Shown here one piece after another: positions 17,960-49,051 of a DNA stretch of 64,000 nt (positions are counted from its first letter, which is position 1; each line of letters starts with the position of its first letter). The notes under the pieces were generated by a model. That model saw nothing but the letters and a program-made list of their open reading frames with translations. It ran no database searches and had not been told where the DNA came from. Source of the stretch: Trichodelitschia bisporula (Eukaryota); NCBI GenBank assembly GCA_010356995.1, contig ML996699.1, positions 713,697 through 777,696 of the forward strand. The letters run 5' to 3'. The position numbers were made by a program, and so were the translations under genes.

Positions 17960-20900
17960 ATGAGTGCGATACTCTGGAAATATTTCCTCGAGGATGATGT
18001 CGAATCCTTTGGGCACTTGCTGAAAACAGCACCCTACACTACACGCCAGGGCGCACAGAAGGGCCATGGCAGCTCCGCCGATGCGACGAGCTTTAGCACA
18101 TCTCCCACGCACACCAAGGGCAAGGGACGCGAGTCTGAAGCGCGCAACATACCGGCCGGTCTTACACTGACCCGCGCTGACGTCAACTACCGCGATGCCT
18201 TTGGGCGCACGCTCCTGCATCTCGCTGCCGCGTCGACGGCGGCCACGGCCTACGAATTCGCAGTGGCGCTGCTTGAGCACCCGCTCACGGATATCTTTCT
18301 CCAGGATGCGGAGAACGGTTGGACGGCACTACACCGTGCGCTGTACGCGGGCAATGTCGCCATTGCGCGCTGTATACTCGCCCGCGATGCGCAGGACTCG
18401 CCGGGATACGGGTCGGGGTCGACACAGCGCGCTGGCGGGTTGATCAAGGTCAAAGACCGAGAGGGAAATGGGCCGTTCGATGTGTACGAATTGACGCTCG
18501 AGGGACATCGCCACCAACATGATCGCCGGGAGCCGAGGTCATATGTTGTGGAAAGTTCCAAAGAGGAGAGGAGCGATGATGAGTACGACGTAGACGCCGC
18601 CAAACGATCCATGCTGAGGCCGAACACCAGGCTCTACGGCGACGAGCTTTTCACCTTCGGGAGCAACAAGAACCTCACCTTGGGGTTTGGTGACGAGGAT
18701 GACCGACAGTTTCCTGAACGCCTTCAGCTCAAAAGAGCAGAGAGTGCCTACGAGCATATGCAGGACCGAAACAGCCACAACAGGATTGACCCTGTCCTGG
18801 TCTTCAGTGTGCATATGGCCAAGTTACATACAGCCGTCCTAGTCCACGACAAAGGACCGAATTTGTACGTCTGTGGACACGGCCCCGGTGGCAGATTGGG
18901 GCTCGGTGATGAGCGGACACGCTTCCAGCTACAGCTCGTCGAGGGCGGCACGCTGGCTTCTAAATCAGTTAGGGCAGTTGCGCTTGGTCAGAACCACACG
19001 CTGGCCATTGATACGTCTGGCAGTGTTCATTCATGGGGGAGTAACGATTTCGCGCAGCTCGGGTACTCGCTCTCGAAGGGAACAGTTCAGACGCTTCCCC
19101 GGCAACTGTTCGGCCCCCTGAAGCGGGAGTACGTGATAGGGGTTGCGGCTTCTCGGATCCACTCCGTCATCTATACGGAATCTGCCTTGTTCACCTTTGG
19201 CAAGAACGAGGGCCAGCTTGGCTTGATGGATGCGGACGCCCGGTCGCTCGAGATCCAGGACACACCGCGGCGCGTCGCACCTTCGCTGCTCACCGCGGAC
19301 ATACGTTGTGTGACGGCGACGGACCGCGCGACATGTTGCGTTCTGCAAAACAAGGAGGTCTGGGTGTTTGCCAATTACGGTTATGCGAAGGTGCATTTTC
19401 CAGTGCCTGGACTTAACAACAAATTCCTCAGCTCTTACAAGCATCTGAAGTCCATACGTCCGGACATGGCTACAATACGTAAAGTTGTCTCGGAAGGCGA
19501 TACTATCTGCGCGTTGTCCGAGGCTGGTGACATATTCAGATTTGGCCTGACTAAGGCCGAGGGTACATCCAACTCAGGGGCCTCCACAACGAACCCTCGA
19601 ACGCTTCGGTCATCGCTGTCGAAGCCCCAGCGCATCTGGTCTATGAATAAAGGCCACATGGCGGCCCGAGACGTGGCTATGGATCAAAACGGTTGCATCA
19701 TTTTGGCTACCCAAGCCGGCAGCGTGTGGCACCAGCGCAAAAAAGCCCACGACTCCTCGACAGCTGATCGCAAGAACAAAGACTACAAGTATTCGCGCAT
19801 TCCAGGGTTGACGCGCATTTCCGCGATATGTGCGTCAGGCTTTGGGGCATACGCTGCTGTTCGCGAAGATTGCGAGAAGATGGACAAAATTTATTGGCAC
19901 AGGGGGAAGTATGATGACGATGGGGTTGAGTGCCATTACAACGACTGGTTTCTTGCACAGGACGGGGATGAATTCTTTCGATACGATCATCACTCTTTCT
20001 GGGTCGAAGATGTTCTGAAGTCAGATGACCCGGACAGCTGTCTTCGGTCAGCGATAGACGACATGCGGAAGCCAGACATACCCTTCGACGCGATCATGTA
20101 CTCTGTCGGCTCGAGCGTCAGGATTCCTTTTCATAAAGTTCTCCTTGCTATGCGCAGCCCCGTGGTGAGGAATATGATTCACCAACTGGAACTCAATGGC
20201 ATGGGCAGCATTTGCCACCGGGGTCGCCTTGAAATCAGCAAAGTCGACGGACTGCTCCATGTCGTCTTTACTGACGCCAAACGTTGTGATCCGCTCACGC
20301 TTGCGAACTTGGTGATGTTCCTGTGTGAATCGAGTGTTAGGCATATCTGGGGCCATTCCTATAAAGGCCTCTGGCATCATGAGCATTACCGTCGGACTCG
20401 CGCAGAACTCCTCGACTTTGCCAAACTGCTTGAGATTAGGCCACTAGAGCGTTGCATCAAGGGGGGAGAGGATGGGGGGATCGCCAAGGCGGACGACATT
20501 GTCGAAGCCTTAAGCGACTTCCCTGCCTTTGGCGCATCGGCAGACGTCGTTGTGCAGCTAGCCGATGGCGAGGCTTTGGTTCACTCCTTCATCGTCACCC
20601 GCAGGAGTCGCTTCTTCGAAAGCCTCATTTTGGGGAGTTCAGGCACTTGGTTTTCTGAGCGGCGTAGACCTCGCGATGACTTGGGCCGCCAGACGATCGA
20701 TCTCAGGCATATTTCGTGCAGGGCTTTCAAATATGCTCAGCGCCACATGTATGCGGGCTTGTACGAAGACACCTTCGACTGGTTCTTCGACGATGTGGTG
20801 GCCGACACGGCGGAGGAGTTCCTGGAAACAGTGTTAGATATTCTAGGTGCGGCAGATGAGCTCATGTTGGACGAGCTTTGCGGCGATTGCCAGCACGCCA

Positions 20901-22773
20901 TCGGTCATTATGGTATGTTTGTCATGTTCCCGCTTAACCTTTACTAACCGTCCCAGTGACGGTGCGTAACGTCTGCCAGCTCCTCGGCAAAGTCTCGCAA
21001 TTCTGCATGAAGGGTTTCCAGAGAAGCGCGCTGAAGTACATCTGCTTCAACCTCGAGGCAGTGCTACAGTACGGGCGCTTTGACGAACTGAGCGAAGACA
21101 TGCTCTTTGAGCTAACGAAGACATTACGCCATCTTCAGACTAAATGCCTACCGATCCGGGGACGGGAGCCCGACGTTTTGGCCGCGCTCCACGCTAGGCA
21201 CCCCGGCCTTCAGCGCCGCATAGATCGCGAATGGCGCGCGAAAATCGATTCCATGGTCCGGCAGGGTGCTCGCTCTGTCATCGATGGTAGCCGCTTCGCC
21301 ACGGTCAATCCTCCCCACCCGGTTGCCGACAGTCCCCGCCCAGCGGTCGACAAACGGCCAGCTGCCAATGATACAAACGCAAGGGACTATCCGTTGGTAC
21401 TGGACGAAGACTTACTGGCTAATAAAAAATCCAGGTACGGAGGAGGAAGCGGATTCGTCGCAACTAGCCCCGGAGAGGCGTTCCTAGGCAGGCCCGACTC
21501 CCCGCCCCGCCGACATGCCTCGCTGAGCGATAGCCCGTATGGTCCAGCACTCCGCGCCAGCTCGTCCGCTTGGGATGTGTTCCATGAAGCTCCGCCTCAA
21601 GCAGATACCGATGCCAGGCGCCTTACGCCCGTTATCCAGGATCCGTACATCACCCCGGAGTCTTCCCGCACCCCACGACTACCGCCTCACAATGTAGGCC
21701 CCTCTACCCCCGTTCCAACCCCATGGCAACAAGTCCGGAGCAAAAACAGTCCTCTCCCAGTTTCCGGCTTCTCTCCTGCCCGTCAACCCGCCAAGCCCAT
21801 CACATCCAAACTTCCACCTTCTCTCCCCATCTCAACCGACGGTCTCGCCTCCTCCCAGTCATACCCAGACCTACCAGTCCTCCCCAAACTCTCCCAAAAG
21901 GAACGCAAACGCCTCCAAGCCGAGCGCGCCAGCGCACCACAACCTAACCCCGACCCTTCTTCTTCCTCCTCCAAAAACCCCTGGCAACAAGTCCCAAAGA
22001 AAGCATCTAAGCTCACCGAGCTTTTCGCCCAGGCCGGCACCTCACCCCGCCCGCAGCTTACAATGCGCCAGACGGTGGCCAATCCCGCGGCGTCGGGTGC
22101 CAGCGTCAGCGGCGGGAAGGCTGCGGTGGTTGCAGTGAATAGGCCTGGCTCGTCGGGCGCGGGCATCAGTTCTTCCCGTGCCGTACCGCTTGCTACCTCT
22201 GTGGGCACGCCCCCGGCGAACGGCAAGGCACCCGCGATAGGACCGGCCCCGGTGCCATCTGCGCCGCGTGGCTCGAGCACGCCCGCGAAGGCGACGGGCG
22301 GCATCCGCTGCGGCGCGCCGGGGATGCCGTCTGCGGCCGGGGTGGCCTCGACGCCGATGTCGAGCTCTCACCCGTCCGCCTCGCACCCAGCCGCTTCGCA
22401 CCCATCCGCCTCCCACCCGCCCGCCGCTCACCTCTCTCCCGCGCCAATCCAATCCATCCGACATACGCCCAAGCCCGGCCCATCGACGACGCCGTTCTCG
22501 AGCTACCAGCTGAGCATGGCTGCCATCCTGACGTTGCAGCAGGACGAGAAGGACGCGGCGGCGGCCGCGAGGGAGAAGCGCGATTTGAGGGATATACAGG
22601 CGGAGCAGGAGTTCCAGGAGTGGTGGGATAAGGAAAGTGCGAGGGTTAGGAGGGAGGAGGAGGAGAGGGAGGGGGGTGGGAAGGGGAAGGTGGGGAAGAG
22701 GAGGGGGGGGAGGGGGAAGAGGAGGGTTGATGGTGCGGGTGGTCGGGAGGGGGCTGGGGTGGGGACTGTTTGA
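17960..22773 (+). CDS. btb1: Ankyrin + RCC1-repeat + BTB/POZ protein (Btb1/IBtk-like Cul3 adaptor); intron 20913-20956
   Basis: Ankyrin motifs GRTLLHLAA and ENGWTALHRALYAGN; RCC1 repeats (FGSNKNLTLG, GGRLGLG, WGSNDFAQLG, FGKNEGQLG); two BTB-like segments; C-terminal KLSQKERK and IQAEQEFQEWWDKES. Confidence 0.88.
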
Positions 22774-28559: not shown

Positions 28560-29430
28560 GGGAGATGGATATGGGGAGGAAGGATGAGGGGAAATGGGGA
28601 TGAGGAGGAACACTGAGGATGGGGGCAGAGGACGGCTGGAGATGTTGGATGCTGGACAGAGAGGGGTCAGAGGTTAATCGAAAAAGTCATGTCACCCCCA
28701 GCGACTAGACCTCTGCCAAAAATCCGGAGGGGCGAGGGCATGACTTTTTCGGGTAGCCCTTGGGCCCTTTGGGCATTCGAGGTATATGTAGATGGAATGG
28801 AGAAGCGGGGCGCTGAGCCGACCTGCTGGACAAACAATGCGCATGGATATGATGAGCGCTCTTGCCCCAATTCCCTCGTTCCTGCCTTCACCCCTGACGC
28901 GACTTCCATTCAGTTTCGCCGCTTCTTCCACTTCTTCCACACGTGACAATCGCAAGTATCTCCACGACGAGCTCTTATCCGCCAACTTTCACGCTTCAAT
29001 GTCCCCTCAGCCGCAGTCCCCACACATCTGCTCGCTGCTAATACGAACAGGCGGGACGTCACACTACCATGCCAAACTGAACTGCAGAAAGAGCTAAGCA
29101 TACGATCTATGTTGTAGTGCCTCAATATTAACGCACAAAACAGATGTCCGGCCCAAGCTGGCTGACGTTCGGATCGGGGTCCGTTCGGATCGGATCTTCT
29201 CAACTGCGAATCCCCGAATTAAGAACCGCTTCCAACCCGCTTCCACACCCATTCAAATACCGTAGCCGTCTGAGCTCCATGCCCTCACGCCTCTCCCTTG
29301 CCCTTCACCGACCGCACTACCGTCGTCCCAGCCTTCTCTACCACTCCAACTCCGGCCCCCTACCACACATCCCCTCGCCTCCCACCCCAGACTCGAGCTC
29401 CCGGCATACTATTCTCATCAGGACCGCCTG

Positions 29431-30781
29431 TCAAAGGCAGAGGACCAACTCACCTTTCTCCGCAACCCCATTCCCAACTTCCTCGCCGCCCTTTCCGACC
29501 TCATGCGGCACCTGCTGCGCCGCCTGGAAAATCTCCGCCCCGGCCCGTCTCTCGCGAGCCGCATGCTCACGGAGCAGCGCCGCAATCTGCGGATCCTGTC
29601 GACCTATCCCTTTCAGCCCCGCCGGCAGGCCGGGCGCCGTGAGCACGGCATAGTTTCTCTCCAGCTCCCTAACACGGGCCCGAAACCCCGCCTCCAACCC
29701 CGCATCATCCCCTCCTTGCCCCTCGGGGGCATACACATCCATCCTAACCTCAGTCTTCCCAGGCTCAAGTGGGTTATACACCGTCATGCTCCACGCCCCG
29801 CTGGGCAGGGCTGCTAGATGTGCGAGGGGGAAGACGTATATTTCGGGGTCAGGGTGCGGGGGCCGGAGAAACGAAATCAAGCGGATGAGGGGTGAAATGG
29901 GTGCCGCGGCCGGTTGAGGAGGGACTAACGGTCAGGTTTATGGAGGTGGAATAGACGGAGGGCGGGGGGGGGGGGGGGGGGGGCTACCGGCTAATTTCCA
30001 GTTGAACGCGCCCTTGGCCTCGAACCGCGCGACGGGCCGGCTGCTTGGGTCTGCGAACGCAGCCGCCCAGGCCGCAAGCTCCGCCTCGCTCCTCCCTTTC
30101 CCACTCTCACCCCTCTCGCCGCCCGAGAAATTAACGCTCACAACGCCATCCAGCACACTCAACCCAACAGGCCACAGCCCCATGCCCTCCTTCCTGAACC
30201 CAGGAAGTGCATCGAAGTGTGGCGCCTTAGTCAGACGGCCACGCGCATCGTAACTCCACCCGTGGTACCGGCAGCCAAGGACGAGGCTTGTGCCGGACTC
30301 CTTGCGAGCAACGGTGTATGCGCGGTGGCGGCAGACGTTGTGGAAGGCACGGATGTTTGCGTCCCGGCCTTTGATCAGTACGATGGGCAGCGAGGAGGGG
30401 GTGAAGGTTGTGTATGAGCCGGGGGAGGGGAAGTGCGAGGTGTGGGTTAGGGGGAGGGAGTGCTGCGGGGGTTAGCTGGGGGTGGGGATGGGAGGTGGGA
30501 CGTGGGGGCGGCAGTACAGTGGTGAAAATCGCGCGCCGCTCCAGCGCAAATTGCCGCGCGCATGTCCACCAGCCTTCCTCCTTGCCCACCCGTGGAACCG
30601 GCTCCTCGGGCCCGGAGAAGGGTCCGGCGGGGCGGGTCTGTGGGGTCGGCCCGGTCGCGACAGCCCCGCCATTGAAGGCTTCGGGCCGGGCTGGGCGACG
30701 GGAGAACAAGGACGCGAGCAGAAGAAGAGCAACGGCGACAACGATGACGGGGAAAGGAAGCATAAGCGCGTCTCGGTCCAT
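29431..30781 (-). CDS. Rieske [2Fe-2S] oxygenase-like protein A (choline/carnitine monooxygenase-like): Rieske ligands intact, mononuclear-Fe motif absent; introns 30463-30517 and 29925-29987
   Basis: The spliced product reads ...WWTCARQFALERRAIFTT|HSLPLTH...RAFHNVCRHRAY...LGCRYHGWSYDARGRLTKAP...FNWKLA|VPPQPAAAPISPL...IYVFP...KTEVRMDVY. N-terminal hydrophobic segment PVIVVAVALLLLASLF. Confidence 0.85.
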
Positions 30782-32908
30782 TGCTGCCACACAACTCCAA
30801 AAATAAAATCCAAAATGGTCTCTAGGGCGGAGACACAACAACGACGGACGAGGTAACCTCACCAGCGGGGCGGCGCATATATCGCAAATGGCATCGCCGC
30901 CTCGGCGGCAGTGCCCGCGGGTCCGCGCATACGCATCCCAAAACACGGATTGCGTTCCTGTGTTCCTGGGTTGGCTTAACCCCGCGGACTGCATTCGTGT
31001 ATTTCCCAACCGGCGGCTGCGAAGCCATTCCCTCTCTGCATATCGAACCCAGGCGCCCGTGTCGGAGTGCGTTTTGCAGGTCGGTTTCGCGGGCTCGAGC
31101 TTCACTTCGACTGCCTGACTTCCCAATGCGGCAAAAGGTTCCGCACCCGCGTTGCTCGGTCCTGCATCTGCCGGCCGGCTGGGCGCGTGTAGCGCGCCGC
31201 CACGAGGGGTTGCTGCGAGGCTGCCAAGAGGATGGCCCTGCCTGCTGGGGTGATTTGCGTGGATGGGAGTGCCCTGCTTGGGCTTGTGTTACAGGAGGTG
31301 GGGATGATAAACTCCCATTGGGATAATGGGATGGGTTTTGGATCTCGCGGTGCGGCGAAGCCCCCCGCTGCTGCCCCACTTTGGGCCGTTTTGCGGAGGA
31401 GATGCGGGCGTGCAGAGGAGATTTGCGGTTGGAATCGGAGTTCGATGGCACGATCAGTGCGGATTTAAATAACGGTGGGCGGGTCTGGAGCGGATATGTT
31501 TGGGGCAGTGACGAATGGACTGCTTGGGGAGGGGAGATGCAGTTCAAGTTCACCCCTCCATCGGCGAGGTTTTGATAAGATCTGATGGCTTGTTGAAGTG
31601 ATTGCCGCCTTTTTCTGTCTTATTGGCCTGGGAAGCGGCAGCGTCTTTATTGGCCCCTCAGGACCGGGTAAGCGCATCCTGCCCAGACCCGAACTCGGGA
31701 CGACGAGTGACAACCACGAACTCTCAATCTACCCTCCGCTCGCTACCTGCAACGCATTGCAGCATCTTACTCGCAACATTGGCTGCATGACCTGTCACGA
31801 TCCAGTAACCTAGACAGCCTCTGCCGCGCAAGCCGGAACCGCCGTCAACCAGACCCTCAAGTCGATAGCCGTGCACCACGACAAGGCGCTCCAAAAGCCT
31901 CAAACCTCAACCCGCAGATGGTTGAGACTCGAGAACATCGTCAAACGCGGCTGAGCACACTTCATGATGTCGCACGAAAACCACGCCTGCCCTATGTCAA
32001 GGAGCTTCTATAGTAGCACAGAGCAAGGAGACCCTTCTCCCCACCACCGACACCGGCCGTAACTTACCCTGAGCAAGAGGTCAAGGGCTACCAAAAACAA
32101 AGTCATGTCCCTACTGGCGACTACACCTCTAACACATTTTGGTGGGGGGGAGAAGGGACTTTTTCGAGTAGCCTTTGAGCCCTGTTCGTCGCTCCGCACC
32201 GTCATCCGGGACTTCCAGAGTCGTTACGGCCCCATCCTGTGCTCGCTGCTCGTTATCATGGTGCCAAGCTGATACCGATATCTACCGATATCTTCCAGTT
32301 CACTCCAGCCAGTCGGATGTTTGCCTGGGCTGGGGAAATGCTGCGTTGCATCAAGGCGCGTGTGATGGTGCACAGGGCTAATCGCGAGTAGGACTGGATG
32401 GTATGCGGTGAGGAATACTGGAAAGGCGGAGATTGGTCTAATCGAAGAAGCATGAAGCAGCCTTATCATGCTGGCTTTCCAGCTTCCGCCGCGAGCAAGA
32501 GGGTTCTCACTTGGGGTGCGAAGATAGGATCCGCGAGCCTTTCCTGAGGAACGAACGCGCGATGATATGCTTATGATCGATCTTTTGCTGTGGTGACGAG
32601 GGCTGTCCCGGTATCGGTCGGCTTGTCATGACGAACAGGGCTCTCCACCGTTATTCCAGGTCACTTGGACCATCGTACCGGCCTATGATGGTAATGGGCA
32701 TGGGCTGTGGCTTCTCCGCTGCAGATAAATCAGGGAGGTCTTTAAAGTTATTCACGTACTGGATTCTTAACTCACTGTTGCATAGGGATATGTTAGATTG
32801 CGTAATGTGATTACATTTATCTCAAGTTTCCTCAAGGTCGGAGGTCGATTCAAGTTCAGACAGTCCATGATTGTGGATTGTGAACTTTATGTCAACACCG
32901 TAAGGGAT

Positions 32909-33095
32909 GAACTCGTGGTCGTATACGCCTGACTCAAGTTCCATTACAGATGCCAAACTCGTGGTCGTATACGCCTGACTCAATCTCCATTACAGATGTC
33001 GAACTCGCGGTAGTCGATGCCTGATTCAAATTCTATACTATATAGAACCAGAAGTCGAACTCGTGGTCATCAACGTCTGGTTCAACTTCAATCCA
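32909..33095. repeat. Tandem repeat, unit about 46 bp, about 4 copies, progressively degenerate
   Basis: AACTCGTGGTCGTATACGCCTGACTCAA... starts at 32910 and 32956; diverged copies at 33002 and 33058. Confidence 0.85.
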
Positions 33096-33120
33096 AGAGG
33101 TCGGGGTCCATGTACTCGTT

Positions 33121-33363
33121 TTACGCAAACGGTACATCCTCTCCATCCAACTTCGGCCCCAAATACTTATTCTGATAAAAGTTCTTGGGATTGCGCTTCG
33201 GGTCAGGCTCCTGCGACGCCTTGTACTCGCAGGGAGGACAGAGATTCTCGGAAGTCCCGCTGACCGTAGTGCGCTTGTGACCTGGCTGCCCTATTGCTTT
33301 ACAGTCGGACGCCTTGATCTTGGTGTGTCCGCACGCGGACTTGGTTTCGATAGTCTTACACAT
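33121..33363 (-). CDS. Small CxH...CxxC protein g1 (80 aa)
   Basis: MCKTIETKSACGH...LCPPC; intronless; same ligand pattern as its neighbours. Confidence 0.65.
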   Translation of the reverse strand: MCKTIETKSACGHTKIKASDCKAIGQPGHKRTTVSGTSENLCPPCEYKASQEPDPKRNPKNFYQNKYLGPKLDGEDVPFA

Positions 33364-34035
33364 ACTGACGGAGGATTTCCTGAATCTGAGATCTCGAACT
33401 TAGAACTGAAGGGAGAATGTTCTTTAAAACTGAAGCGAGAATCTTTGGAACTGGATGGGAGAAGATTCGAAATCAGATCCAGTGGATGTTTGAGCTCGAA
33501 GCTTGGGGTTGGTGGTGGGATGAAAGAGGAGTCTTTCATGGCGTTATATATGTGGATTCTCATCAGCGAATGTGAGTTCAGGAAGAAGATTGTGATCTCT
33601 GTATTTCGATATTCACTAATGCTTCAACGCACTTGGGAACACTTTACTTGCCTATGTGATTTGCGTATATGGTCAGCGAAGTCGGTGAGTGACTACATTT
33701 AGCTAATTGTAACCTTCTCAGTCCAGCCGCACCAAGTGTGATGGCCGGCGGAGGTGGAAGGAGAGGCAGGGTGGTAAATGTGAGATCGAAGGAGACTGAC
33801 GCTTAGCAGTATACACACCATCTTGCCTTCTCTCCATCATGCACTTGCGTTCTGGCGCCATGTAAGTCCTATACGTCTCTCACTCACCATGCAATACCTC
33901 ACTTTCACCCGTAGGAACCTCACTCACGAGTCGCCCAGATGCCTTATAAGCCTCGTACCTTCCCACTAGAAACTCTCTTTTCTCGTCCGTTACTACTTCC
34001 CTCATCTTCGCGCTACATCTTCACGCTGCAGGAAG

Positions 34036-34320
34036 ATGTGTATCGTCAAGAGAGTCAAGTACGCATGCTACCACCCCGAGTGGGAGGCCACCAACCGGCG
34101 CGAGAAGGCCGAGCTGCCGTTTACGCACCCGGATCACGCTGTGCTTTGCGAGGGCGGGATTGAGGAATCTGGGGACAGATGTGCCGTGTGCTTGCGTCAC
34201 CGGGCGATGCTATTGGTGCTTTTGGTCTTGTATGTTTGGTATAGGATGCTTATGGCTGAGTACCGGGAACTTACGTTTTTTGTTTTCAGAATCAACATTT
34301 CGCTTACTTGGTACTTGTAA
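34036..34320 (+). CDS. Small CxH...CxxC protein g2 (94 aa) with a hydrophobic C-terminal segment
   Basis: MCIVKRVKYACYH...RCAVC, then MLLVLLVLYVWY; TATAAG about 90 nt upstream. Confidence 0.65.
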   Translation: MCIVKRVKYACYHPEWEATNRREKAELPFTHPDHAVLCEGGIEESGDRCAVCLRHRAMLLVLLVLYVWYRMLMAEYRELTFFVFRINISLTWYL

Positions 34321-34779
34321 GCTTGTCATCTCCACGGCCATCATCACGCTCATTTGGAACTTTCCTTGGTAAACTCCCCATCTCCACGGTCACCACCTAG
34401 CATAATCAATATAAACAACGATTGAACCGACTATCCACCCTTGACCCCCTTGACTGTAATGTGCCATGTCCTTGAAGTGAAATACTCCCGCTCCCTCAGT
34501 CTACCGGGATAGCCATCCCATGTTCGAACTGGAACTGTCCTGATCTGCAGCACGAAGACGCCTTGCACGGCGGTGTTCCAGCAATTGACCGTGCCCACAG
34601 TGAACGAACCGATGAGGACAGCTATGGTGATTGATGCGAGCCATCCACCTAGACGGGGGTGACGAAGGTAAAAGGAGTCACTGGAAAGGTAGTATAAAGC
34701 CTCGTTTTCGAACTGCACTCCTTCCTCGCCATTAACAAGCACACCAACTAGCCTTTTCAACCCAGTATCACAGTCCAAA

Positions 34780-35232
34780 ATGCCCAATACCAAGATTGGT
34801 ATCACGCGTACCCACTACGCCTGCCACCACAGCACTCTGATCATAACCCCGCCCGACTCCTGGGATTCTATGGCTTTGGGGGACCGGCAGGTTACTAGGC
34901 ACCACGTGTTTAATGACGACAAGTGCCCGGCGTGCAAGGCCGGGGTGGAGGAAGCTTCAAAGCAAGAGACCTTGGATCGCAAGGTCTCGAAACAAAAGGT
35001 CTTCGACCAAAAGTCGGACTACAAGGGTTCGATTCACGGGTCTGCGGACCCCAAGGCTTCAGACCACAAAGATTCGGATGATAAGCCATCGGACCACGAG
35101 CCCTCGGAACATGAGCCCTCGGAACATGAGGCCACGGAACACAAGCCCTCGGACCACGAGCCTTCGGATGAGTGGGTGAATAAGAACTGCGGGACCGAGA
35201 CCAAGAAGAATGATGAATCTCACCCAGAGTGA
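34780..35232 (+). CDS. Small CxH...CxxC protein g3 (150 aa) with SDHEP-type pentapeptide tail; inverted copy of the array unit
   Basis: THYACHH...KCPACKAG; 15-bp repeats; TATAAA at 34693; flanks are reverse-complement homologues of the 37.3-41.4 kb units. Confidence 0.75.
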   Translation: MPNTKIGITRTHYACHHSTLIITPPDSWDSMALGDRQVTRHHVFNDDKCPACKAGVEEASKQETLDRKVSKQKVFDQKSDYKGSIHGSADPKASDHKDSDDKPSDHEPSEHEPSEHEATEHKPSDHEPSDEWVNKNCGTETKKNDESHPE

Positions 35233-36077
35233 TATCCATGCTACGTTAATCAGTCGTGTAATAGCTGCAAGTCTGGAAGCTTAACGGTCAGAGGCCGAGG
35301 GCCGGACGAGGCTGAGATGCAGCATGGATCAAGAGATTAGCCTAGTTCTAGTTTGGATTCAATGAAGGTCCATGAAATTGATCATCCGTGCCGCGTGCTC
35401 GCTGCTCTGCTTCCATAGTGCAGAGTGATGACGTTCTTCCGCATCCCAAAAATATCATCCACCTTAACACACAAATCGGACCGATAAGCCTTCACAAAAC
35501 ACTTTTCAAGCCGGGGACGAAGGTGTGTAGCGAAAGATCACCTTATCAGGCAAAGCCCCACCACAAGGCTGTCATCACATGACAAGCAACCCGCCCCAAT
35601 CGAACCTCGCGCCACAATCCACAGACGGACCACCACGTCAACGGTAACACAAACACCTCACCCCAACAGCTGGAGCCCAACAGCTTGAGCTCCGCCTAAC
35701 GCGTTAACATGGGGCCATACCCGCTATCACCCACGGAATCGGACACCTCCAACACGTGTAGCATCGCGCTCGGAGAGCTCGGGGGAAAGATCTCGACGGG
35801 CACCTCGCGGCGTTCGTATCCCTCCCAGCTATGAACAACCTCCCTTCGCCGCAAGCAACAAAACCGGATATACCGCGATCTAGCCCCTCCTTGCTCATTC
35901 CTATCCCCAGCTCCTGCGGGGCACGCGTTCTCATCACACGCCTCCATCCCCGCGTCAGGTTTTATCGTCCATCACTCAGAGCGGATTCCTTGCCCGCATT
36001 CGGACAAAAGTCCATCCCGCTTCCGGCCCCGCGATCCACCGTCGCGGTCAGACCGCGTCAGCATCGGTGCTTCAGAC

Positions 36078-37289
36078 ATGGCGCTTGAGTTTCTCGCCGC
36101 GCTCGCGAGGTGGGGCGTCGGTGCGGGCGGGTTAAATACTAAGCTCCGTACCGCTGGTGGCCCGGGTGGGACGGGCGGCAAGGCTGAACGCCGTGACGAC
36201 GACTGCACCGCCGACCCCGATAACGACCCAGTTATGGATCTGCCCAAGACGCTTCCTGCGAGTTGGTACCGCAGCGCGCCGCTGTATGCGCTCGAGCGGC
36301 GGGCTGTGTTTCTCAAGGTGCGTGCCCTGCTTCGGGATATGAACGTATGCTGATCCATGGGCAGGCGTGGTACCTCCTCGGCCCTGTGACGCGCTTCCTT
36401 CCCGACGAGCCGGTGCGGTATGAGATTGCGCAGGTGCGGTTGTGCGCTTCGCGCGGGGCAGGCGGGCTGAGGGACGTGAGCGTCGTGGACGAAGACACAG
36501 GCTTGCCGCTCCGCAGCTACATCACATCCTCGGGGCTAGTCTTTAGCACCATCTCGGGCGACGCGCCAAGTTTCGTCGAATTCTTCCCCGATCTCGAGCC
36601 GTTGCTCGCGCGGGTGGACTTCACCAGACTGCCGCACCGGCGGAGTATACGCTACGAGGGGAAGTTCAACTGGAAGACGATGGTGGACGGATACCAGGAG
36701 TGTTTGCACTGCCAATATACGCACCCGTCTTTCAGCGTCAACTACCCGCCGACCTTCTACAGCGTGTCGAACCACTGCAATTTCAGCCAACACATTGCCG
36801 ACCCGGCGAAGCCGGACGATGGGCTGTTTCTGTACTTCTTCCCCAATTGCACACTCAATGTGTACGGCGGTGGGATGAGCAGCTTCCGCGTGTGTCCTAC
36901 GACTGAGCCTGGTGTCACGCGTATGGAATTCGATTACTACCACGTGGCGGACGGGGCGGAGTTTGAGTCGTATTTTGCGTTTGTGAGACAGGTTGCGCAG
37001 GAGGATTTTGAGCTGTGTGAGAAGGCGCAGGCGAATCTGGAGCAGGGGGTTTATGTTGAGGGGGTGTTGAATCCGGATAAGGAGACGGGTGTTGCGTGTG
37101 AGTTGTCTTCTTCTTCCCCGTGGGTGCCAACTGACGTATATAGTCTACCAACAGCAGGTCCTCAAGCTGGTGGTTGCGCAGCACGAGGCGGACAAGCAGC
37201 GCGCGGGCTTGATGAGGGAGGCTGGGCCGATGCCCGTGCGGGACGGGGCGGGGAGGCATGCGCTGTGTGTGCAGAAGGCGACGGCATGA
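36078..37289 (+). CDS. Rieske oxygenase-like protein B: catalytic domain intact, Rieske cluster-binding subdomain missing; introns 36318-36364 and 37098-37143
   Basis: LPASWYRSAPLYALERRAVFLK|AWYLLG..., NWKTMVDGYQECLHCQYTHP (36698-36724), FLYFFPN, QEDFELCEKAQANL, GVLNPDKETGV. No CxH/CxxH pair in the expected interval. Confidence 0.88.
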
Positions 37290-37703
37290 TGCGGGCGCCG
37301 AGGGTGGCGGAAGGTAGGGTAGAGGTAGAGGTTTGATTGGCATGTACCATATCACGAGAAGTGCTTCAACCAATTCAAATTCCGTTCATTCATTGAATCT
37401 AAGCTAGGCTATAATACTATCGCACCCATGCGACATCCGAGCCTGTTCAAGCCCTTGGCCTTGGGCCATGAGCCTCGGGAATGCAGTTCTTACACGGCTC
37501 GTTGACTTAGTACGATGTCACTTTCTTGGTGGACTAAGCGTCAGCCGTCTTTGCCTCGGTTCCGCAGTTCTCACCATTGAGCCTAGCCTGGAGAAGGGTT
37601 GACGAGGAGTCAGAGGGCGTATGATCCGAAGACTTGTGGCCTGGGACTTTGTACTCCCGAAGGCTTATGGATACGAAGCCTCCGGGTCCGAACCCTTATC
37701 ATC

Positions 37704-37904
37704 CTAGGCCTCCTGGTCTGAAGCGATCTGGCCCGTCGTCGCCATGCGCTTCAGGAGCTCCGCACGGTGCTTACATCCCGGACACATGTCGTCCCTAAAC
37801 ACGACCTGTGAGAAAGCCTCGTCTGCTTGAAGACTAGGATTTGCGGTGTCAGTAACGGTTGCGACTTGGTGGTTGCAAATGAAGATGATACGCGTGAGAA
37901 CCAT
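37704..37904 (-). CDS. Small CxH...CxxC protein g4 (66 aa), truncated by a premature TAG; decayed tail continues to about 37535
   Basis: MVLTRIIFICNH...DDMCPGCK; the relic SSTLL...ENCGTEAK downstream of the stop matches the g6 C-terminus. Confidence 0.65.
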   Translation of the reverse strand: MVLTRIIFICNHQVATVTDTANPSLQADEAFSQVVFRDDMCPGCKHRAELLKRMATTGQIASDQEA

Positions 37905-38381
37905 TTCGGGTGGCTAGTTTGGGTTGGGGTGCTAGGTTGAGAAGGGGATGACTGATGGAGGTGGTTAGGGACAGAGAGGAGGGATCACGGCTCAAGCGGA
38001 GCTTTTATACTACCTTTCCAGTCACATCTCACCTCAGTCACCCTTCGTCTAGGTGGCTCGCTTGCATCAGTCACCATACCTCCATTCCCGGTTCATCCTG
38101 TGGGTACGGTCACTCGCCGTGACACGGCTAGAGCGGAGTGTCTTCCCTATCATGAGAGTACTTGATCAAGCAATCCGGACTTTGTCCTTTCATTAAATCT
38201 AAGCTAGGCTACTACTATCCGACCTATATAGCATCTTAGCCTCGTGCGGCCTTGGGTCTGAGGCCGTTGAGCCTTCGGACGTGTAGTTCTTTTACAGCTC
38301 ACTGATATAGCGCGGGCATCACTCTCTCGACGAGAACTGAGCTTTGTTGTCCTTCATCTCGGTCCCGCGGTTTGAGTCCAC

Positions 38382-41724: not shown

Positions 41725-44002
41725 CTACTTGCGTCCCAACATCGTATTCCCACTCGCACTCCTTCTCTCCTTCTTCCGCCACTCACTCTTATCACTCTTA
41801 TCCCTCTCTCCACCCTCATCCCTCCGCGGAGGCTTCTTCCTTCCCTGCGGCATAAACGACACCTCCCTCTCCCCAACCACGCCGCGCTTAACCACCCCCG
41901 CCGACTTATCCTTCAACTTGCCAACCCGGTCACCAAATGCCTTCTCCATCTTTGGCTTGCTCTTCCCTGCGCTCGAAACCACCATCCTCGGGCCCTCCTC
42001 AGCCCGAGCCTTAGCAGCACTCTTCTTCCGATCCGCGATCTGCGTCTTCCGCCTGTACCCACCGCCCTCACTCTCCTCACTCTCACTCCCACTCGAGTCC
42101 TCATTCCCGCGCCGCGCCTCCTCGAGCTCCGCCTCCTCAACGGCAGTAAGGCCCTTCGGCAACCGCCGCGGCTCATCTCGGACCAACGTGCTAGGATTGA
42201 GACTGCGGAACTCAGCACTGCGCTCATTGATCTCAAACGCCTCGTCCTGGAACAGGCGGGCAAAGCGGTCGTCAGTAAGGATATCCGGGCGTCTGGAGTC
42301 GACGGCGTCGCCGCCAACCTCCTCCTCCTCCTCTGCCTCGGACACTTCCTTGGGCTCTGCCGGCTCATCGCCACCTTGCTTGAGGACGCGACGCGCACGA
42401 CGCGCCTCGTTCTTGGCCTCGCGCTCGAGCACGCGCTCCGCCAACCGGCGGTTAACCTTGACAGCAACCTTCTTCGCGCCACGGATGCGAGACTCGCGCT
42501 CCTTGTCGATGCGGGCCTTGATACTCTTCGCGCGCTGGTCGGCCCAGAGGGTAGGATTGGACAGCAGGGCAGCTTCTTCGTAGAGCTTCTGCGCGACGAA
42601 GAAGCCGTGCATGTAGGGGCGGAGGAGCGCGGTTTGGCCCACAAGGTGGTCGATGTTGAGCACGCGCAGCTGGGCGGGGGTCAGGAACTTGAAGTTGTCG
42701 TAGACGGCGCCAGTTTGCTGCGTGGTGCTGAAGGCGGATGGGTCGGTGGGGTCCTCGGCGAGTTCTTCGACGAGGTTGTCGAGGAAGGCGCACCATTTCG
42801 GGGCTGGGCCGAGCTGGGGGATGAAGAATGCGTGCTGTTGCTTGCCTTCGTTGGCTGTCAGTAGCATGCCGCTGTCGGAGCACCATTCGACGTGGTTTAG
42901 GTCGACGGCTGGCTCGACGGCGGTCCATGGGTCGCCGGTCGTCGGGTCCCAGAGCTTGATGATGCGCTTGTCTGCGGAGAGGATTTTGGGGTCAGTGGTC
43001 TGGGCGCGAGTGCGCGAGGAGGACTCTAGGAACTTGAGCGTCTGGATGGGGTATCCATAGCCTTGGTCTTTTTTTAGCAGTGGAACGGGCGAGCGGAGGT
43101 CGTAGAGGTGGATGAGTCCAGTAGAGGAACCGGTGGCGAGAGTTAGCCCGTCACGGCGGAAAGAGAGGGCGGTGACTTCAGTGGCGGCATTCATGCTGTC
43201 GGGTGTAGGGTCACGGGGAAGTGAGAGGATGCCGATCCGGCTGCGCGAGCGCGGGTCGAAGAATTCGACTGTGCCGAGCGACGTGCCGAACGCAAGCAGG
43301 TTGTGGCTCTCCTCCGCTACGGCAGCCGTGTTAACGGCACCGACGCTGAGACTGCCTTGTAGGGTTCCTGAGTTGAGGGCGTCTGGATCGTCGCCACCGA
43401 CGTCGACTTCATAGCCCTTCATGAAACGCCCCAGTTCCAGGTTTAACCGAAACACTTCGCCATTTCCCTCCGCGTTGAGACCCACGGACGGTACCAGGGC
43501 CTCAGCGGATCGCCGGTCGTAGACCAGGTCGCGGCCATACCGCGGGATTCGTGTCTTGTAGTGGCATCCACCGGGGCTTTGGAACTCAAGGTAGCGGTCA
43601 GTCTGGAGATGGAGAGATTTGGAGTAGTCGGAAGAGAGGAGGATGAAGGTTTGGTTGAGAGTGTCGGTGTGGCGGGCGAAGGAGAGGGCGAGGTGGGGTA
43701 GGTAGTGCGTGTGTATTTGCGGCTTGTATGTGCCTGCGTCGTGTCAGTTCTTCGTCCTGGACTTCCGTCGTGCAGCTTAACACACCTGTACTCATCACCC
43801 AGTTTCCATCTTCGCTGACCCGCACGCACGAACTGGACTCTTCAAACTCAAAGTCCTGCAACAGTTCTATGCGGTTCGCAAACTCGGGGTCTTGCTTCAG
43901 ACTGCGTTTTCGTTTGCGGATGAGCCAGTCTGGGAGAGGCCGTGCGGTCGATGACCCGGCTATAGTATAGACCGGAACTGCAGAGTGTGTGGAGAGCTTC
44001 AT
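41725..44002 (-). CDS. ENP2: Ribosome biogenesis WD40 protein Enp2/NOL10; intron 43734-43785
   Basis: LPDWL.RKRKRSLK.D....RIELLQDFEF, STG|TYKPQIH, FFIPQLGPAPKWCAFLDNLVEEL, YDNFKFLT, LRPYMHGFF, NUC153-like DDRFARLF. Confidence 0.95.
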
Positions 44003-44471
44003 TGCAGTGAGGACAGATGCAATGAAGCCGTGATGTTTTCTGTGGATATCAAAGAGGCGCAAAAAGTTGTCCTCGACCCCAGCGTGCAGGGCTGGACGCT
44101 AGTCTTGTCTTGTCCTTAGCGCGACAGCTCGCATAACTAGTTCGAAGTAGGCCTAGACCGGACGCAGGCGATTGCATCAGTCCTCGTGTGCATGTTGTGC
44201 AAGTTGTGCCTGGGACGACAAACCACCAGCCAAACGTCCTTCAGAACTGGTTCAACTCACGGAGCTTCGGTCTAGACGCCTCTTCCCTTCCGCTTAAGTC
44301 GCTTCGGCTCGCAGTGGCTACGAATACCCGCTCATATCTCCCCTTATCACAGCGGCAGCTTCCTCATGACCGCCAGCGCAAAGCGCGAACGCGCCGCGGC
44401 TCTTTATCGTTGATGCAGACAATCATCAAAGACAGTCGCCTTTACCATCTTGACGTTCCGTAACCCCCGCT

Positions 44472-47400
44472 ATGGACTTCTTACGCTCCTGCTACACCGG
44501 AGTCCAGACTCTCAGCGGCTTTACGCATGTCGCCTACAAGATCTACACGCTCGCGAAGAGGCCGCAGGGCACCGAAGATACCCGCGCCAGCTGGGAGAAT
44601 CTCTGGGCCGTGGAACGCCATCTACGCGAGAACAAGGTCATTGGACATTTGGACTACTCGCGATGCACGCTGTGGGTATTTGAGGCCGGAGAGACGGTCA
44701 GCTTCCAGACTGGCCCGCTGGAAGACGCGACAAGCTGTGCGCTGACCCGTATGCTTTCGTAACTCCCCCCCTAAGCGCAACTACTGATGCCCCCCCTAGA
44801 AGTCTTCTTTGGAACCCTAAAAGCAGCTGATCTCTTGTACTGCAATCGTCCGCTTTCTACTCCCACGCCGTCGCCTGGTGCCGGCCCTCATGGAACACCT
44901 TCCAACACCTTGCGTGCCTCGCAGATGGCCAACCTGCGGGCGATGCAGCAGAATGCGGCAGCCCAAACGACCCAGGACAACTCTCCTGTGGCGGATATAC
45001 GTACCGTACACGCAATATTCTGCTCTGGCATCACTTCCATGGTGTTGTACCATCTTGCCCGTTACCAGCAGGCGGTTCCCCTGGACTCTCGCACCTTCGT
45101 GCTTCCGTCCTTACATCCTACTCCCAAACCTGCTCGCTTGCAGCCCGTCGTCTTGGACGTGTATCTCACGAGCAACGGCACGCTCGTCATTGCCAGTAAT
45201 GGAGCGGCCAGCTTTTGCCCATTATCGCCGCTCATTCTTCCAAGGCGCGAAGCCCTTGTCGTCTATGTCGCTCCGTGTGGAACACTGGCTCTCGTCAGCG
45301 ATGAGGAAGTCGACTTTGACGGTAGCGAATCCCGTTTATGGCGTGGGTTAGTCGAAGCGGCGCTTGATCAGAAGGGCATCGTCCTCCCAAATCTGGACCG
45401 CGAGAGTAGCTGGGTGCGCCTTCGGAGTCAATTCCCGCAAGGAGACCAGAGTTTTACGCCGCAGAACTTTCTATGGCCAGCCGAGCTTTGCTTTCAACAC
45501 TCGCCGGATCCTGTTGAAAGACTGGATTCTGACGGTGTCGATGGGCTCGGCAAGCTCCAGTCGTTGCCTCCATCCTCATGGTTCTACAATCCGGATCACA
45601 GCGGCTACATCAGCCCATGGGACTTTGCAGAGAAGTGGTTACTCGGCAAGCCGGAGCGAGATCGCATGCTAGAGGCGCAACGGCAGCGTCAGATCGATAT
45701 GGAAACCGCACAGAAGCACGCTGAATCCGCCGCGGCCGCCTCCTCGCCTCTGAACAACCGCAACGTGAACTACTCCGACATCCACATCAACTCTGGCGTG
45801 TACCCTACCCCACCCGACGGAATCATATCGCAGGCAACGACGGTGGCTGCCCATCCAGACATTCCTGCGCTCTCTGGGCCGTTTGACGGCAACTCCGCTA
45901 TGCAAATTGATTCCAAAGGGCCCGTGGATATGAACTTGACCGATTTCGATTTCGGGTCCCGCGGAAGGCAAGACCACTCTATGGGCGATGATCTGTTTGG
46001 TGACATGGATGAAGATGACTTCGTCGGCAACGACATTACCGATGCGGATTTTAGTTTCTTCGACGAGCCCGACGATGTCGGACACCCGGGTGGAGCCGAC
46101 GCGACCGCCGGGGCATCGGAGCCTCAGGTTGTAGTGGTTAAAGAAGGCCCGGCAGATGAGACTGAAGCGCTGGCTCTGGTCAAGACAGACACGCCTTTCA
46201 ATGACAATCCAAAGCCAGATCTACACTCGGGCGGGCAAGAGCTCGAAGTCAAGCAGCCGCTCAACAGCCCGCCAATAGTTTTGCGACCCATTCTAACGCC
46301 CATCTCGGTCCGCCAAAAGCTCTTCTCTGCAAACTCGCTCAATGACTCTAACGCGCGTCGGCAAAGCGCCTTTGAGCACGTGTCCTTCAGCTCGGAAATC
46401 GACCGCACCGACGCTAAGTACTCGTCTAACGGTCCCTTCTTTGTGCCTGATGACGCAAAGCGAAAGCCGGATGAAAAGGCGACGAGCAAGAGTCTGCCCC
46501 CTAGCAGAGCAAAGCGGCGGAAGGTTACGCAGCCGCAGGGCGTAAAGTTGGAAATAGCGTATGATAGTGACGGAGACAGCGTTACTTCTAGTGCGTCCGA
46601 CGACGATCTCGAGTACTCTTATGACATTGCATCGCCGGCCAACCAGCTGTATGCAGATAAGCGTGTTACAGGCTTGCGGGAGGAGGGCACGGCATCGTTG
46701 GCTACATCGCCTGGTGATTTTATGGGCGATGCTACAACGGCAACGCATCCCAACCAGAAGGTTTGACTCCGTACTTTCGCATATTCCATCTCCCTAACTC
46801 GAACAGGAACTTGTCGAACGCCTGGCCGCCGTCCTTACGCCCGAGAACTCGACCCAACGCACCGGCGTCCCGCAGCCATCATGCATGGACCGTTTCATGG
46901 CCCTCGACCGGTTGTCCGGCACCCGATCGAGGCCGCAAGAACGTGCCAAACCACCCGACAGTCCGCTCAACCCTATGAACAAGGACTTTATCAGCGTTGC
47001 CCAAATTATCGCCGAGCAGGTCATCTTTAGCACTCTCGGTAAGAATTCGTAATGTACTCTCGTACCCTCTAACGTGGACAGACATCTTGCAGCCGCCGCG
47101 CAAGCTATTCGGCTCGGGCAATGCTCAGCAACCAATCGATTATACGGCGCAATATGTCCACGCCACTAACCTGGCCGTGCGCCAACTCTTCCAGAGCGCA
47201 GTTGACTGTGACCTCTTAAAGTTCATCTCCATCCAGGAAGCCACGGAGCAACCATCGAAACAACAGCAACAGACCCGCCAGATACCGCGTCGCACGAATA
47301 GCTCCGGCGGCCCGGTAGACTCCACAAGCTTCCCCCTCAACCACGTCACAGTCTTACAACCACCACACGTCCGGCTCCGCCGCGGCGACGCCTGCTGGGA

Positions 47401-49051
47401 TATTCTACCAACCGCCCTTCCATTCTGGGAGTACCTAGGCCTAGCCCCAACAAGCGGGCCCAAGAACATAACGGCCTACGCCATCTACCCTGGCAACGAC
47501 GACCTGAAGGGCCAGGTCAAGTACTTCATAGATGCACTGGCCAACACATACGAAACCTGCAAGCTGGGCAGCTTCGCCCTGGGCGATGGCATCGGCGGGT
47601 ATGACGACGCGCTCTTCCCCGTGCACATCGGCGAGAATTATTCCATGACCGCGGCGTCCAAAGCGCTCCACCAGCTATGCAACCACGTGGGCCGTGCCCT
47701 CGCCAGCGCCGAAGCCAAACGGCGAAGCGATGACTCGAAAGCTATCGACAACTTCGTGGTCTTCATGATAAATCCCTTCAACACGCGAAACGGCATCGCA
47801 GAGCTGTGCAGCGCCTTCTGGACACTTTACCAAGGGTACCGGCAACCCCCCCGCTCTCCAACCCTCAAATCCACCCGCCCAGACCTGGTCCTGCAAATCA
47901 TACCCATCGCATACGTCGCCGCGCCCTTCACCATGGTGCTCCCAGAGGTCGGGACCATGCAGCGCCTAGCCCGAGAAGTCTACGACCGGTGTCCGCCCGC
48001 CGTGCCCGCCGCCGACCCCTCGCGCCTGCGCATCTACTCCGCCCCCTCCATCCAGCTCGAAGAATCCCTCCCCAAGAGCATCCAATTCAAACTCATCCCC
48101 GACCCCCCATCAGACCTCCTATACGAAAACTCAAAACTGCACCTCGGGTACGCGCGCTCCTGCGACAAAGCCTGGCTCACGGCCGCCTGGACCGATAGTT
48201 CGGGCAAGTACCAAGCTACGGCGAGCTACAACCTCTCCAACCGCCCGTTCTTCGACCTCGCTAAAGAACTCTGGGCCTCCACGCTGGACATCCTCTCCGA
48301 GCGGAGAATAACCTGGCGTCTAGCGATAACCCGCGTGGGTACGATGGAGCGCGACGAGCTGGATGCCTGGATCACGCTCGCCTCGGCCCCCGCCCCGCTC
48401 ACCATCGTCACAGCAATAACAACTATCGATCCCAACCCACAGACGAGCATATTTCACCGCGCCGACCCGACGCCCCCGCCCGCGCCGACGCCCGTTGCTA
48501 CCCCCGGCGCCGCGAGCGGTATTTCCGCCTCTTCCGCCCCAGACGCCCCGCACGCCCTAACCCCGGCGGCAACGCCCTCCGCCTCCGCCGACGGCGCCTC
48601 CGACCCAAGTAGCGACCCAGACGCACATCTCGTCGACCCCAGCGACGAAACATGGGGCGTAGTCCTCGGACACCGCCCCCCTCCCCCCAGCACCTCCCTC
48701 GACACACGGCCCTTACTCGCCTCCGGCTTCCTGCTACACCCACCCCCCGCCCCCGGCGCCCCTATCTCACCCATGGACTGCGACTCGGAGGGGGGAAACT
48801 CAGGGCGGGGAATGGACGTTATGGGCGTGCACCTAGTCTGGGTGGGCAGGGCGGGGGGTGTAGAAGCGGGGGTCGTGCCGAAGGGGACGGCGGAGGGGAT
48901 GTTGAAGGAGTATCTTGTGCTGTGGAGGGGGTTGGCGCTTTTGGCGCGGGTGAGGGGACTACGGGGGGGCGGGGCTAGGGGGTTGCCGTGGCATGTGCTT
49001 GTTGCGCTTAGGGGGGTGGAGGGGTTGGAGGGTGTTCTTGGGGAGGGGTGA
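44472..49051 (+). CDS. MED13: Mediator kinase-module subunit Med13 (Ssn2/Srb9); introns about 44749-44799, 46761-46806, 47039-47081
   Basis: FLWPAELCF, YPTPPDG, ITDADFSFFDEP, ILPTALPFWEYLGLAPTSGPKNI, LHLGYARS..WLTAAWTD, LPWHV C-terminus. Confidence 0.9.

Follow-up and report, generated by a model that had tools for sequence, protein, structure and literature searches.

Two divergent genes of Trichodelitschia bisporula as probable halves of a split Cmo1-type Rieske oxygenase

A stretch of 64,000 nucleotides from Trichodelitschia bisporula (Dothideomycetes, Phaeotrichales; contig ML996699.1 of assembly GCA_010356995.1, positions 713,697 to 777,696 of the forward strand) was analysed and is referred to as the window; all coordinates count from its first letter. 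The window contains two divergent paralogous genes, termed gene A and gene B, each of which retains only one of the two metal centres of a Rieske oxygenase. A Pfam scan found the Rieske family PF00355 alone in the exons of gene A and the catalytic family PF00848 alone in gene B, as an earlier note on this DNA had predicted. Because such genes are neighbours in many filamentous fungi and their centres are complementary, A and B together are probably one enzyme. The genes and their features are the following.

29338..30781, minus strand: gene A (A-type, Rieske-only paralogue), 426 residues; the spliced exons equal P0121
30781-30518, 30462-29988, 29924-29454 and 29408-29338, minus strand: coding exons of gene A (spliced in script)
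30463-30517 (55 nt), 29925-29987 (63 nt) and 29409-29453 (45 nt), minus strand: introns of gene A (joints in transcript contigs, GT..AG ends)
30713..30769, minus strand: hydrophobic N-terminal segment of gene A (residues 5-23), a putative membrane anchor (Kyte-Doolittle 19-mer score 2.78)
30262..30333, minus strand: Rieske [2Fe-2S] ligands C132-R-H134 ... C152-R-Y-H155 of gene A (Pfam PF00355, E 2e-15)
29454..30003, minus strand: NWK (29995-30003) and the degenerate catalytic half after it in gene A (motif inspection and alignments)
29341..29349, minus strand: C-terminal tripeptide L-E-W of gene A, which fits [LIM]-[DES]-[WF] (protein end ...PELEW; stop codon 29338-29340)
30782..36077, no strand: 5.3-kb spacer between the divergent start codons, with a separate spliced plus-strand transcript
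36078..37289, plus strand: gene B (B-type, catalytic-only paralogue), 372 residues as annotated; the spliced exons equal P0001
36078-36317, 36365-37097 and 37144-37289, plus strand: coding exons of gene B (spliced by script)
36318-36364 and 37098-37143, plus strand: introns of gene B (joints in transcript contigs, GT..AG ends)
36422..36535, plus strand: Rieske-domain remnant of gene B (residues 100-137) with the cluster loops gone (alignments with Gonapodya P0229 and CntA)
36668..36727, plus strand: iron-site motif NWK...Y190-Q-E192-C193-L-H195-C196-Q-Y-T-H200-P of gene B (sequence NWKTMVDGYQECLHCQYTHP)
36998..37021, plus strand: motif QEDFELCE of gene B with the third iron ligand Asp294 (E293 and D294 invariant in the family alignment)

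Splicing by script reproduced the deposited proteins of T. bisporula with 100% identity, P0121 ('ISP domain-containing protein [Trichodelitschia bisporula]') from gene A and P0001 from gene B. Transcript evidence was taken from two runs of one sample in one study, which are not on record as RNA yet carry spliced contigs; read depth was not used for ranking genes. All five introns of the two genes are present in these contigs as clean GT..AG joints, and no alternative joint in A or B was detected among them. The contigs reproduce both annotated proteins exactly, in line with the statement in the earlier note that both genes are open and normally spliced. Different splicing had been named there as something that might restore the missing motifs; since the contigs show the annotated joints only, it does not. 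The proposed stop of gene A at 29431 was wrong, because the 45-nt intron 29409-29453 is spliced out in the contigs and the true stop codon is 29338-29340. The description of the pair as divergent and about 5.3 kb apart is accurate (the ATGs are 5,296 nt apart). The intron that both genes were said to share after W...ALERRA(I/V)F indeed has the same phase-0 position in each, two codons past ERRA(I/V)F, as expected for paralogues.

The annotated gene B starts with 51 residues (36078-36230) that are missing from 55 aligned homologues, and its true start may be Met52 (ATG 36231). Since the transcript contigs begin near 35614-35637, either ATG is possible. In gene A, a long C homopolymer (minus-strand reading) is located at 29950-29991 inside intron 2, and the transcript contigs seem to be broken there.

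The Rieske ligands of gene A were recovered at the positions given for them earlier and are invariant across the A alignment (53 sequences). Past NWK the gene reads LAVPPQPAAAPISPL, spanning the 63-nt GT..AG intron 29925-29987. After NWK there is no E-x2-H-x4-H motif, there are no His-His-Asp iron ligands and there is no bridging carboxylate; the absence of the iron-site motif from gene A, which the earlier note had asserted, was seen both in the sequence and in the alignments. The post-NWK segment of the T. bisporula protein is short and of unusual composition.

Gene B presents the complementary arrangement. Its iron-site stretch, NWK...YQECLHCQYTHP, together with QEDFELCE, had been recognized before, and both elements are sites of the kind then stated. 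The motif at 36668..36727 comprises the substrate-cage Tyr, the bridging Glu, the Cys pair and two iron-binding His residues. E192, C193, H195, C196 and H200 are invariant and Y190 is nearly so among 56 aligned B sequences, and QEDFELCE aligns with the ED motif of CntA and Stc2. The Rieske-domain remnant retains no Cys or His cluster ligand; this N-terminal part is strongly conserved in the family alignment. The deletion of the Rieske segment from gene B, also part of the earlier description, is evident from alignments with the unsplit Gonapodya protein P0229 and with CntA, which skip the C-x-H...C-x-x-H stretch. Both proteins align with P0229 from end to end (E 1e-51 and 2e-57), and the gaps are complementary.

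A canonical alpha subunit carries the Rieske ligands C-x-H...C-x-x-H, which are present in A and absent from B, and on the same chain a 2-His-1-carboxylate site with a bridging carboxylate, a combination that neither protein possesses. Judged by these motifs, neither protein alone is a canonical member, the full set being found only in A and B together, and neither can be a complete oxygenase singly. The two metal centres are located on separate gene products, as in split Rieske oxygenases.

The complementary losses are conserved across fungi. A search with the main exon of gene B returned 401 proteins and one with the whole protein of gene A returned 308; in each case 120 were listed, and the following counts refer to these. 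The last large exon of gene A alone, used as a query, matched only gene A's protein itself. All 120 listed B matches contain PF00848 only. Most have 300-330 residues, their identity to the query is 64-80% (self-match aside), and they span Dothideo-, Eurotio-, Leotio- and Sordariomycetes, e.g. Aspergillus, Penicillium and Histoplasma. The listed A matches are 30-43% identical to the query (self-match aside). They comprise 105 proteins with PF00355 only, 12 long models with both families, one unsplit Gonapodya protein and two models merged with Mpv17/PMP22. By pattern, the Rieske ligands are found in 120/120 A matches and 0/120 B matches, and NWK plus the iron motif in 118/120 B matches. An iron motif near the first NWK was found in eight of the 120 A matches, namely seven merged B-A models that have it in their B portion and the unsplit Gonapodya protein. 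Each of the 12 merged models has the B-like part ahead of A, and the two are separated by A's own Met and hydrophobic segment. These models look like adjacent genes joined by gene callers, although true fusions are possible. The pattern counts and family alignments thus bear out the proposal that A and B are paralogues with complementary losses. They also indicate that the pair is not peculiar to T. bisporula but old and widespread in Pezizomycotina.

The genes also remain neighbours. In the search listings, A and B clusters with an equal-sized longest contig occur in 20 species or samples, and five of these (Rasamsonia, Monascus, Polytolypa, A. niger and Oleoguttula) have consecutive A/B locus tags. 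For a broader view of linkage, 79 metagenome loci were fetched with a B alignment, of which 63 have a match to the B catalytic domain and 46 are distinct at 98% DNA identity. Among the 46, A lies downstream on the same strand in 17 and upstream on the opposite strand in 12. The remaining 17 have no A, and in 16 of them the flanks are too short to judge. Of the distinct loci, 16 extend at least 2.5 kb in each direction, and A is adjacent in 15 of these (nine tandem, six divergent). Hence the independent distribution of the two gene types, which had been named as a finding that would speak against a joint function, was not observed. The gap between the A and B domain matches is 720-1266 nt in tandem and 1062-1641 nt in divergent metagenome loci. 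A spacing of about 1 kb, tandem or head-to-head, is thus usual, and in T. bisporula the divergent arrangement is stretched to 5.3 kb.

In the metagenome loci neither a reductase nor any other third gene is conserved next to the pair; a multi-copy gene of the 2EXR family is near it in five of 18 long ones. The statement that the window holds no reductase gene agrees with the scan of its 75 long open reading frames against Pfam, in which no FNR-type protein was found and the only oxidoreductase was a GFO/IDH/MocA protein (9642-10763). A glutathione S-transferase (GST) gene linked to the pair was found neither in the window scan nor in the metagenome loci. Two A-type models of Aspergillus niger, P0215 and P0220, carry an Mpv17/PMP22 part (PF04117) ahead of the Rieske part. 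The extra part probably belongs to an adjacent gene that was merged into the models, which hints that a gene for a membrane protein lies next to the pair in A. niger.

Of the relatives with solved structures, the stachydrine demethylase Stc2 (3VCA/4QUP) and the carnitine monooxygenase CntA (6Y8J) match both proteins best. A profile of the B family matches residues 37-387 of CntA (E 4e-24), skipping the C-x-H...C-x-x-H stretch, and a profile of the A family matches residues 39-342 (E 5e-48), with nothing at the E-C-x-H...H segment. Models from the ESM Atlas fall to the canonical two-domain cluster with template-modelling scores of 0.76 for B and 0.65 for A. Together, the profile matches and the predicted models indicate that both proteins keep the two-domain alpha-subunit fold.

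Gene B displays the group-V signature Y-x-E-C-x-H-C-x3-H, and its iron-site residues include the equivalents of CntA Y203, E205, C206 and C209. According to published descriptions, Y203 contacts the quaternary ammonium group and C206/C209 form the Cys pair of group-V Rieske oxygenases (PMC7948474, PMC10952381). E205 is described as bridging the Rieske centre to the iron of the next subunit over 12 Å, compared with 44 Å within a subunit (PMC7948474). The earlier suggestion that B might act on a quaternary amine gains from this signature, in which the Tyr matches that of CntA.

A quick maximum-likelihood tree of 55 proteins was calculated with a short search and rooted on three bacterial rows (node values in brackets). 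The fungal forms constitute one clade (98) apart from the bacterial relatives, and within it A (100) and B (99) are each monophyletic. B is sister to B-like proteins of the budding yeasts Priceomyces and Ascoidea (100), and A groups with unsplit fungal forms (92, unstarred). By this tree, A and B both descend from fungal oxygenases of the Cmo1 type (CntA-like, group V), and fungal Cmo1 is the nearest known relative of the pair. The order of events is tentative owing to the short tree search and the root on three bacterial rows. Basidiomycota and some Pezizomycotina (Fusarium, Colletotrichum and Leptodontidium) still possess unsplit forms.

Further Cmo1-like proteins without a cluster (P0272, P0295, P0292/P0359, P0336/P0357 and P0255/P0261) were noticed in Trichomonascus, Gonapodya, Hyaloraphidium, Rhodosporidiobolus, Priceomyces and Ascoidea. 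Gonapodya, with unsplit and cluster-less copies, could represent an intermediate stage of the split. As placed on the tree, loss of the Rieske ligands in fungal Cmo1 paralogues needs at least three separate origins, which tentatively suggests that the head-to-tail alpha3 design predisposes to such a division of labour.

Two terminal features distinguish A from B. An N-terminal hydrophobic 19-mer is present in 83 of 95 full-length A proteins, in three of 97 B proteins and in none of eight unsplit fungal relatives; the hydrophobic N-terminus noted earlier for gene A is therefore a trait of the family. At the C-terminus, [LIMVF]-x-W is found in 93 of the 120 listed A matches and the strict form [LIM]-[DES]-[WF], typical of the Cmo1 clade and represented in gene A by LEW, in 62 of 120. 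The strict form occurs in 0/120 listed B matches. Most A matches without the tail look like shortened gene models. The tripeptide [LIM]-[DES]-[WF] is reported to be the recognition signal of the targeting complex of cytosolic iron-sulfur assembly (CIA), to be present on yeast Cmo1 and to track the cluster ligands (PMC10623007). In keeping with this rule as described there, the delivery signal went with the cluster, being retained in A and lost from B. The presence of the tail on A only constitutes an independent natural test of the rule that the tail follows the ligands.

In canonical Rieske oxygenases the electron leaves the Rieske centre of one alpha subunit and reaches the iron of the subunit next to it. 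Since this path crosses subunits, a mixed oligomer with A beside B would rebuild it completely. We consider it probable that A and B are the functional halves of a single Rieske monooxygenase of the Cmo1 type (group V, CntA-like), A being the protein that passes electrons to B. The two-gene arrangement would date to early Ascomycota. A would be held in a membrane by its N-terminus, with the protein facing the cytosol, and would obtain its [2Fe-2S] cluster from the cytosolic assembly machinery via the L-E-W tail. B would be soluble and would contribute the sole working mononuclear iron site together with the bridging glutamate. Electrons would then run from a reductase to the cluster of A, on to Glu192 of B and finally to the iron of B; as a speculation by analogy with microsomal oxygenases, a microsomal reductase may be the donor for A. 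The dead catalytic half of A and the Rieske remnant of B are presumably kept as an assembly scaffold. This explains best why a catalytic fold and an N-terminal remnant that are otherwise useless are retained, and the invariant bridging Glu of B makes sense only with a Rieske partner in trans. The substrate, choline or another quaternary amine, would be cleaved or demethylated at a C-N bond; a quaternary amine is probable to judge from family membership alone. A fuller version, in which most filamentous ascomycetes possess an obligate heteromeric oxygenase made of a membrane-anchored, cluster-only A and a cluster-less catalytic B, served by a microsomal reductase and performing choline-type C-N cleavage or demethylation, is put forward tentatively and with considerable doubt.

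Several observations weigh against a shared enzyme. Its stoichiometry is unexplained, since an odd alpha3 ring cannot alternate A and B. The dead half of A changes amino acids 2.3-4 times faster than its Rieske half. The ratio of nonsynonymous to synonymous changes (dN/dS) was calculated on the metagenome loci, where synonymous sites are saturated in nearly all pairs; L017-L042, the one usable pair, has values of 0.09 in the Rieske half and 0.27 in the dead half. Because of this faster change and the saturated synonymous sites, constraint on the dead half is weakly shown. Constraint on A is better indicated by reading frames that stay open in more than 100 species and by the conservation of FNWK, Pro298 and the tail motifs. 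As regards neutral evolution, which the earlier note had listed as a possible refutation, it does not apply to B, which is strongly conserved, nor to the Rieske half of A, which is clearly so. The A protein of T. bisporula has the longest terminal branch among the A rows of the tree. The unsplit relatives in Fusarium, Colletotrichum and Leptodontidium could serve B instead of A, and in Leptodontidium the A and B clusters are on different contigs. The well-flanked metagenome locus L061, which has the most distant B-like sequence, shows no A within 8-10 kb. Neither A nor the 5' part of B is present on contig L037, and its 98%-identical sibling L017 has both. Finally, the distance of 5.3 kb in T. 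bisporula makes co-regulation from a shared promoter less obvious.

Other explanations were weighed against these data. There is a very small chance that A, B or both are decaying pseudogenes or artefacts of annotation or splicing. The long branch, short post-NWK segment and unusual composition of the T. bisporula A protein would fit such a reading, as would the N-terminal extension of the gene B model that occurs in no homologue. However, both frames are open, transcribed and spliced as annotated, and more than 100 intact homologues of each are known across classes, with the terminal L-x-W among the conserved motifs. The pseudogene and alternative-splicing readings were rejected on the transcript joints and the exact splices to P0121 and P0001. 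Distinctly improbable, too, is that A and B are neighbours, perhaps co-regulated, yet independent, B using another donor (an unsplit Cmo1 paralogue, a ferredoxin or cytochrome b5) or none and A having a separate redox or regulatory role. Unsplit relatives do exist in some Pezizomycotina, no A-type partner is known for the Rieske-less forms of yeasts, Gonapodya, Hyaloraphidium and Rhodosporidiobolus, and locus L061 has no neighbouring A. These cases have to be set against adjacency in 15 of 16 informative loci across at least two gene orders, losses that are exactly complementary and a bridging Glu that is invariant in B.

The alternative closest to a joint enzyme is that B forms its own oligomer and that A is a dedicated membrane-bound Rieske carrier which docks transiently, like NdmC/NdmD. 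The odd-numbered ring, which cannot alternate A and B, would pose no difficulty here. B is also far more conserved than A (65-77% versus 31-39% identity), and in the NdmC/NdmD/NdmE system a Rieske centre is reported to come from another protein (PMC4408171). What makes a mere carrier unlikely is that A keeps the whole catalytic-domain scaffold, which a carrier would not need and which in canonical enzymes forms the trimer contacts, and that the N-terminal remnant of B is strongly conserved. Binding of A to B in a mixed oligomer, as two halves of one oxygenase, is the reading that we prefer.

Split Rieske oxygenases are already known, and the fungal genes add an independent example from a different family. 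In Micromonas (Mamiellophyceae), two genes are reported to encode chlorophyllide a oxygenase (CAO); the Rieske motif is on one, the mononuclear-iron motif on the other, and activity is described as needing both (PMC9615114, bioRxiv 10.1101/2025.02.10.637544). This eukaryotic enzyme resembles the fungal pair in having its centres on two genes and differs, as described, in belonging to the CAO/PAO type, in its plastid location and in its substrate. Unlike it, the fungal genes are adjacent, and their products are predicted to be cytosolic with a membrane anchor and a CIA tail. NdmC, the catalytic subunit of the caffeine N7-demethylase NdmC/NdmD/NdmE of Pseudomonas putida CBB5, is reported to have no Rieske cluster and to be supplied by NdmD (PMC4408171). 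It thus shares with B the state of a cluster-less catalytic subunit whose Rieske centre is on another polypeptide. According to the same source, the Rieske domain of NdmD is fused to a reductase and a GST-like protein is required. In the fungal pair, by contrast, the putative donor is itself an alpha-subunit paralogue of full length whose active site is dead. CntA (6Y8J), the best solved relative together with Stc2, provides the model of a head-to-tail alpha3 ring with an inter-subunit path from Rieske centre to iron via E205, as far as described, but CntA and Stc2 (3VCA) are bacterial homotrimers with both centres on every subunit.

Cmo1 itself (Scheffersomyces stipitis CMO1) belongs to the same fungal CntA-like group-V clade; A keeps its [ED]-W tail and B its catalytic motifs. 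It differs in being a single chain with both centres, in contrast to the two gene products of the fungal pair. No N-terminal anchor is present in the eight unsplit fungal relatives of the Cmo1 type that were checked, so that A has gained one. Yeast CMO1 is reported to be needed for growth on choline as nitrogen source (PMC5816127). The reaction proposed for it leads from choline to trimethylamine and glycolaldehyde (PMC5816127), and PMC5816127 and PMC6157903 describe the biochemistry of this 'putative choline monooxygenase' as untested. Fungal CMO-like proteins are without some of the choline-pocket residues of the plant enzyme (PMC6157903). Features of the fungal pair's own are two full-length paralogues that each have a dead half, the anchor, a CIA tail on one partner and lasting adjacency in two orders. 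The searchable full-text literature contained no description of the fungal A/B pair, but Linder 2014 was outside its coverage and an earlier remark on filamentous-fungal homologues is possible.

In hundreds of fungal genomes B is labelled 'choline monooxygenase, chloroplastic' or 'Bet v1-like protein' and A 'ISP/Rieske domain protein', and the label 'choline monooxygenase' for such genes was met, taken at face value, in two papers. Viewing A and B as a two-gene enzyme corrects this annotation. As an enzyme with an electron path running across subunits, the pair would be a clear example from nature of duplicates that have degenerated in complementary ways. It also points to a route for the breakdown of quaternary amines (choline, betaine and carnitine) in moulds; the first step of this breakdown is genetically defined only in budding yeasts. 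If the proposal is true, A/B would be an unrecognized fungal enzyme for choline-type amines, with major moulds and pathogens among its owners.

The spacer between the genes harbours the separate plus-strand transcript, which extends from about 30800 to 33950 and has GT..AG joints at 32900-32949, 33131-33180, 33684-33808 and 33862-33938. Its open reading frames match no Pfam family, and one assembled contig continues from gene A into it. Tandem 46-nt units were located at 32910-33103 (four copies) by one tool and at 32910-33033 (2.7 copies) by Tandem Repeats Finder; the first unit lies mostly inside the 50-nt intron 32900-32949 of this transcript. Gene B is flanked by diverged inverted copies of a segment of about 600 nt, 34600-35260 on the plus strand and 37500-38100 on the minus strand. 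Pieces of these arms are 71-89% complementary, and a global alignment gave 76% mean column identity. Each arm contains a small open reading frame with a common ...C-P-x-C-K... stretch and no Pfam match. In one, 34693-35232, a 15/30-nt tandem repeat at 35074-35168 encodes a (P-S-[DE]-H-E)-like run. Through such inverted arms the orientation of B towards A could have been reversed, and this would agree with the occurrence of both tandem and divergent orders in other fungi.

The surroundings in the window contain no biosynthetic cluster, and the neighbouring genes are of the housekeeping kind. On the side of gene A these are an SNF2 helicase (12336-14330), a NuBaID/zf-C3HC protein (15391-16852) and an RCC1/ankyrin/BTB protein (17657-20944). 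Beyond gene B follow NOL10 (41728-43743), Med13 (44454-49048) and a multi-KH vigilin-like protein (49451-53489).

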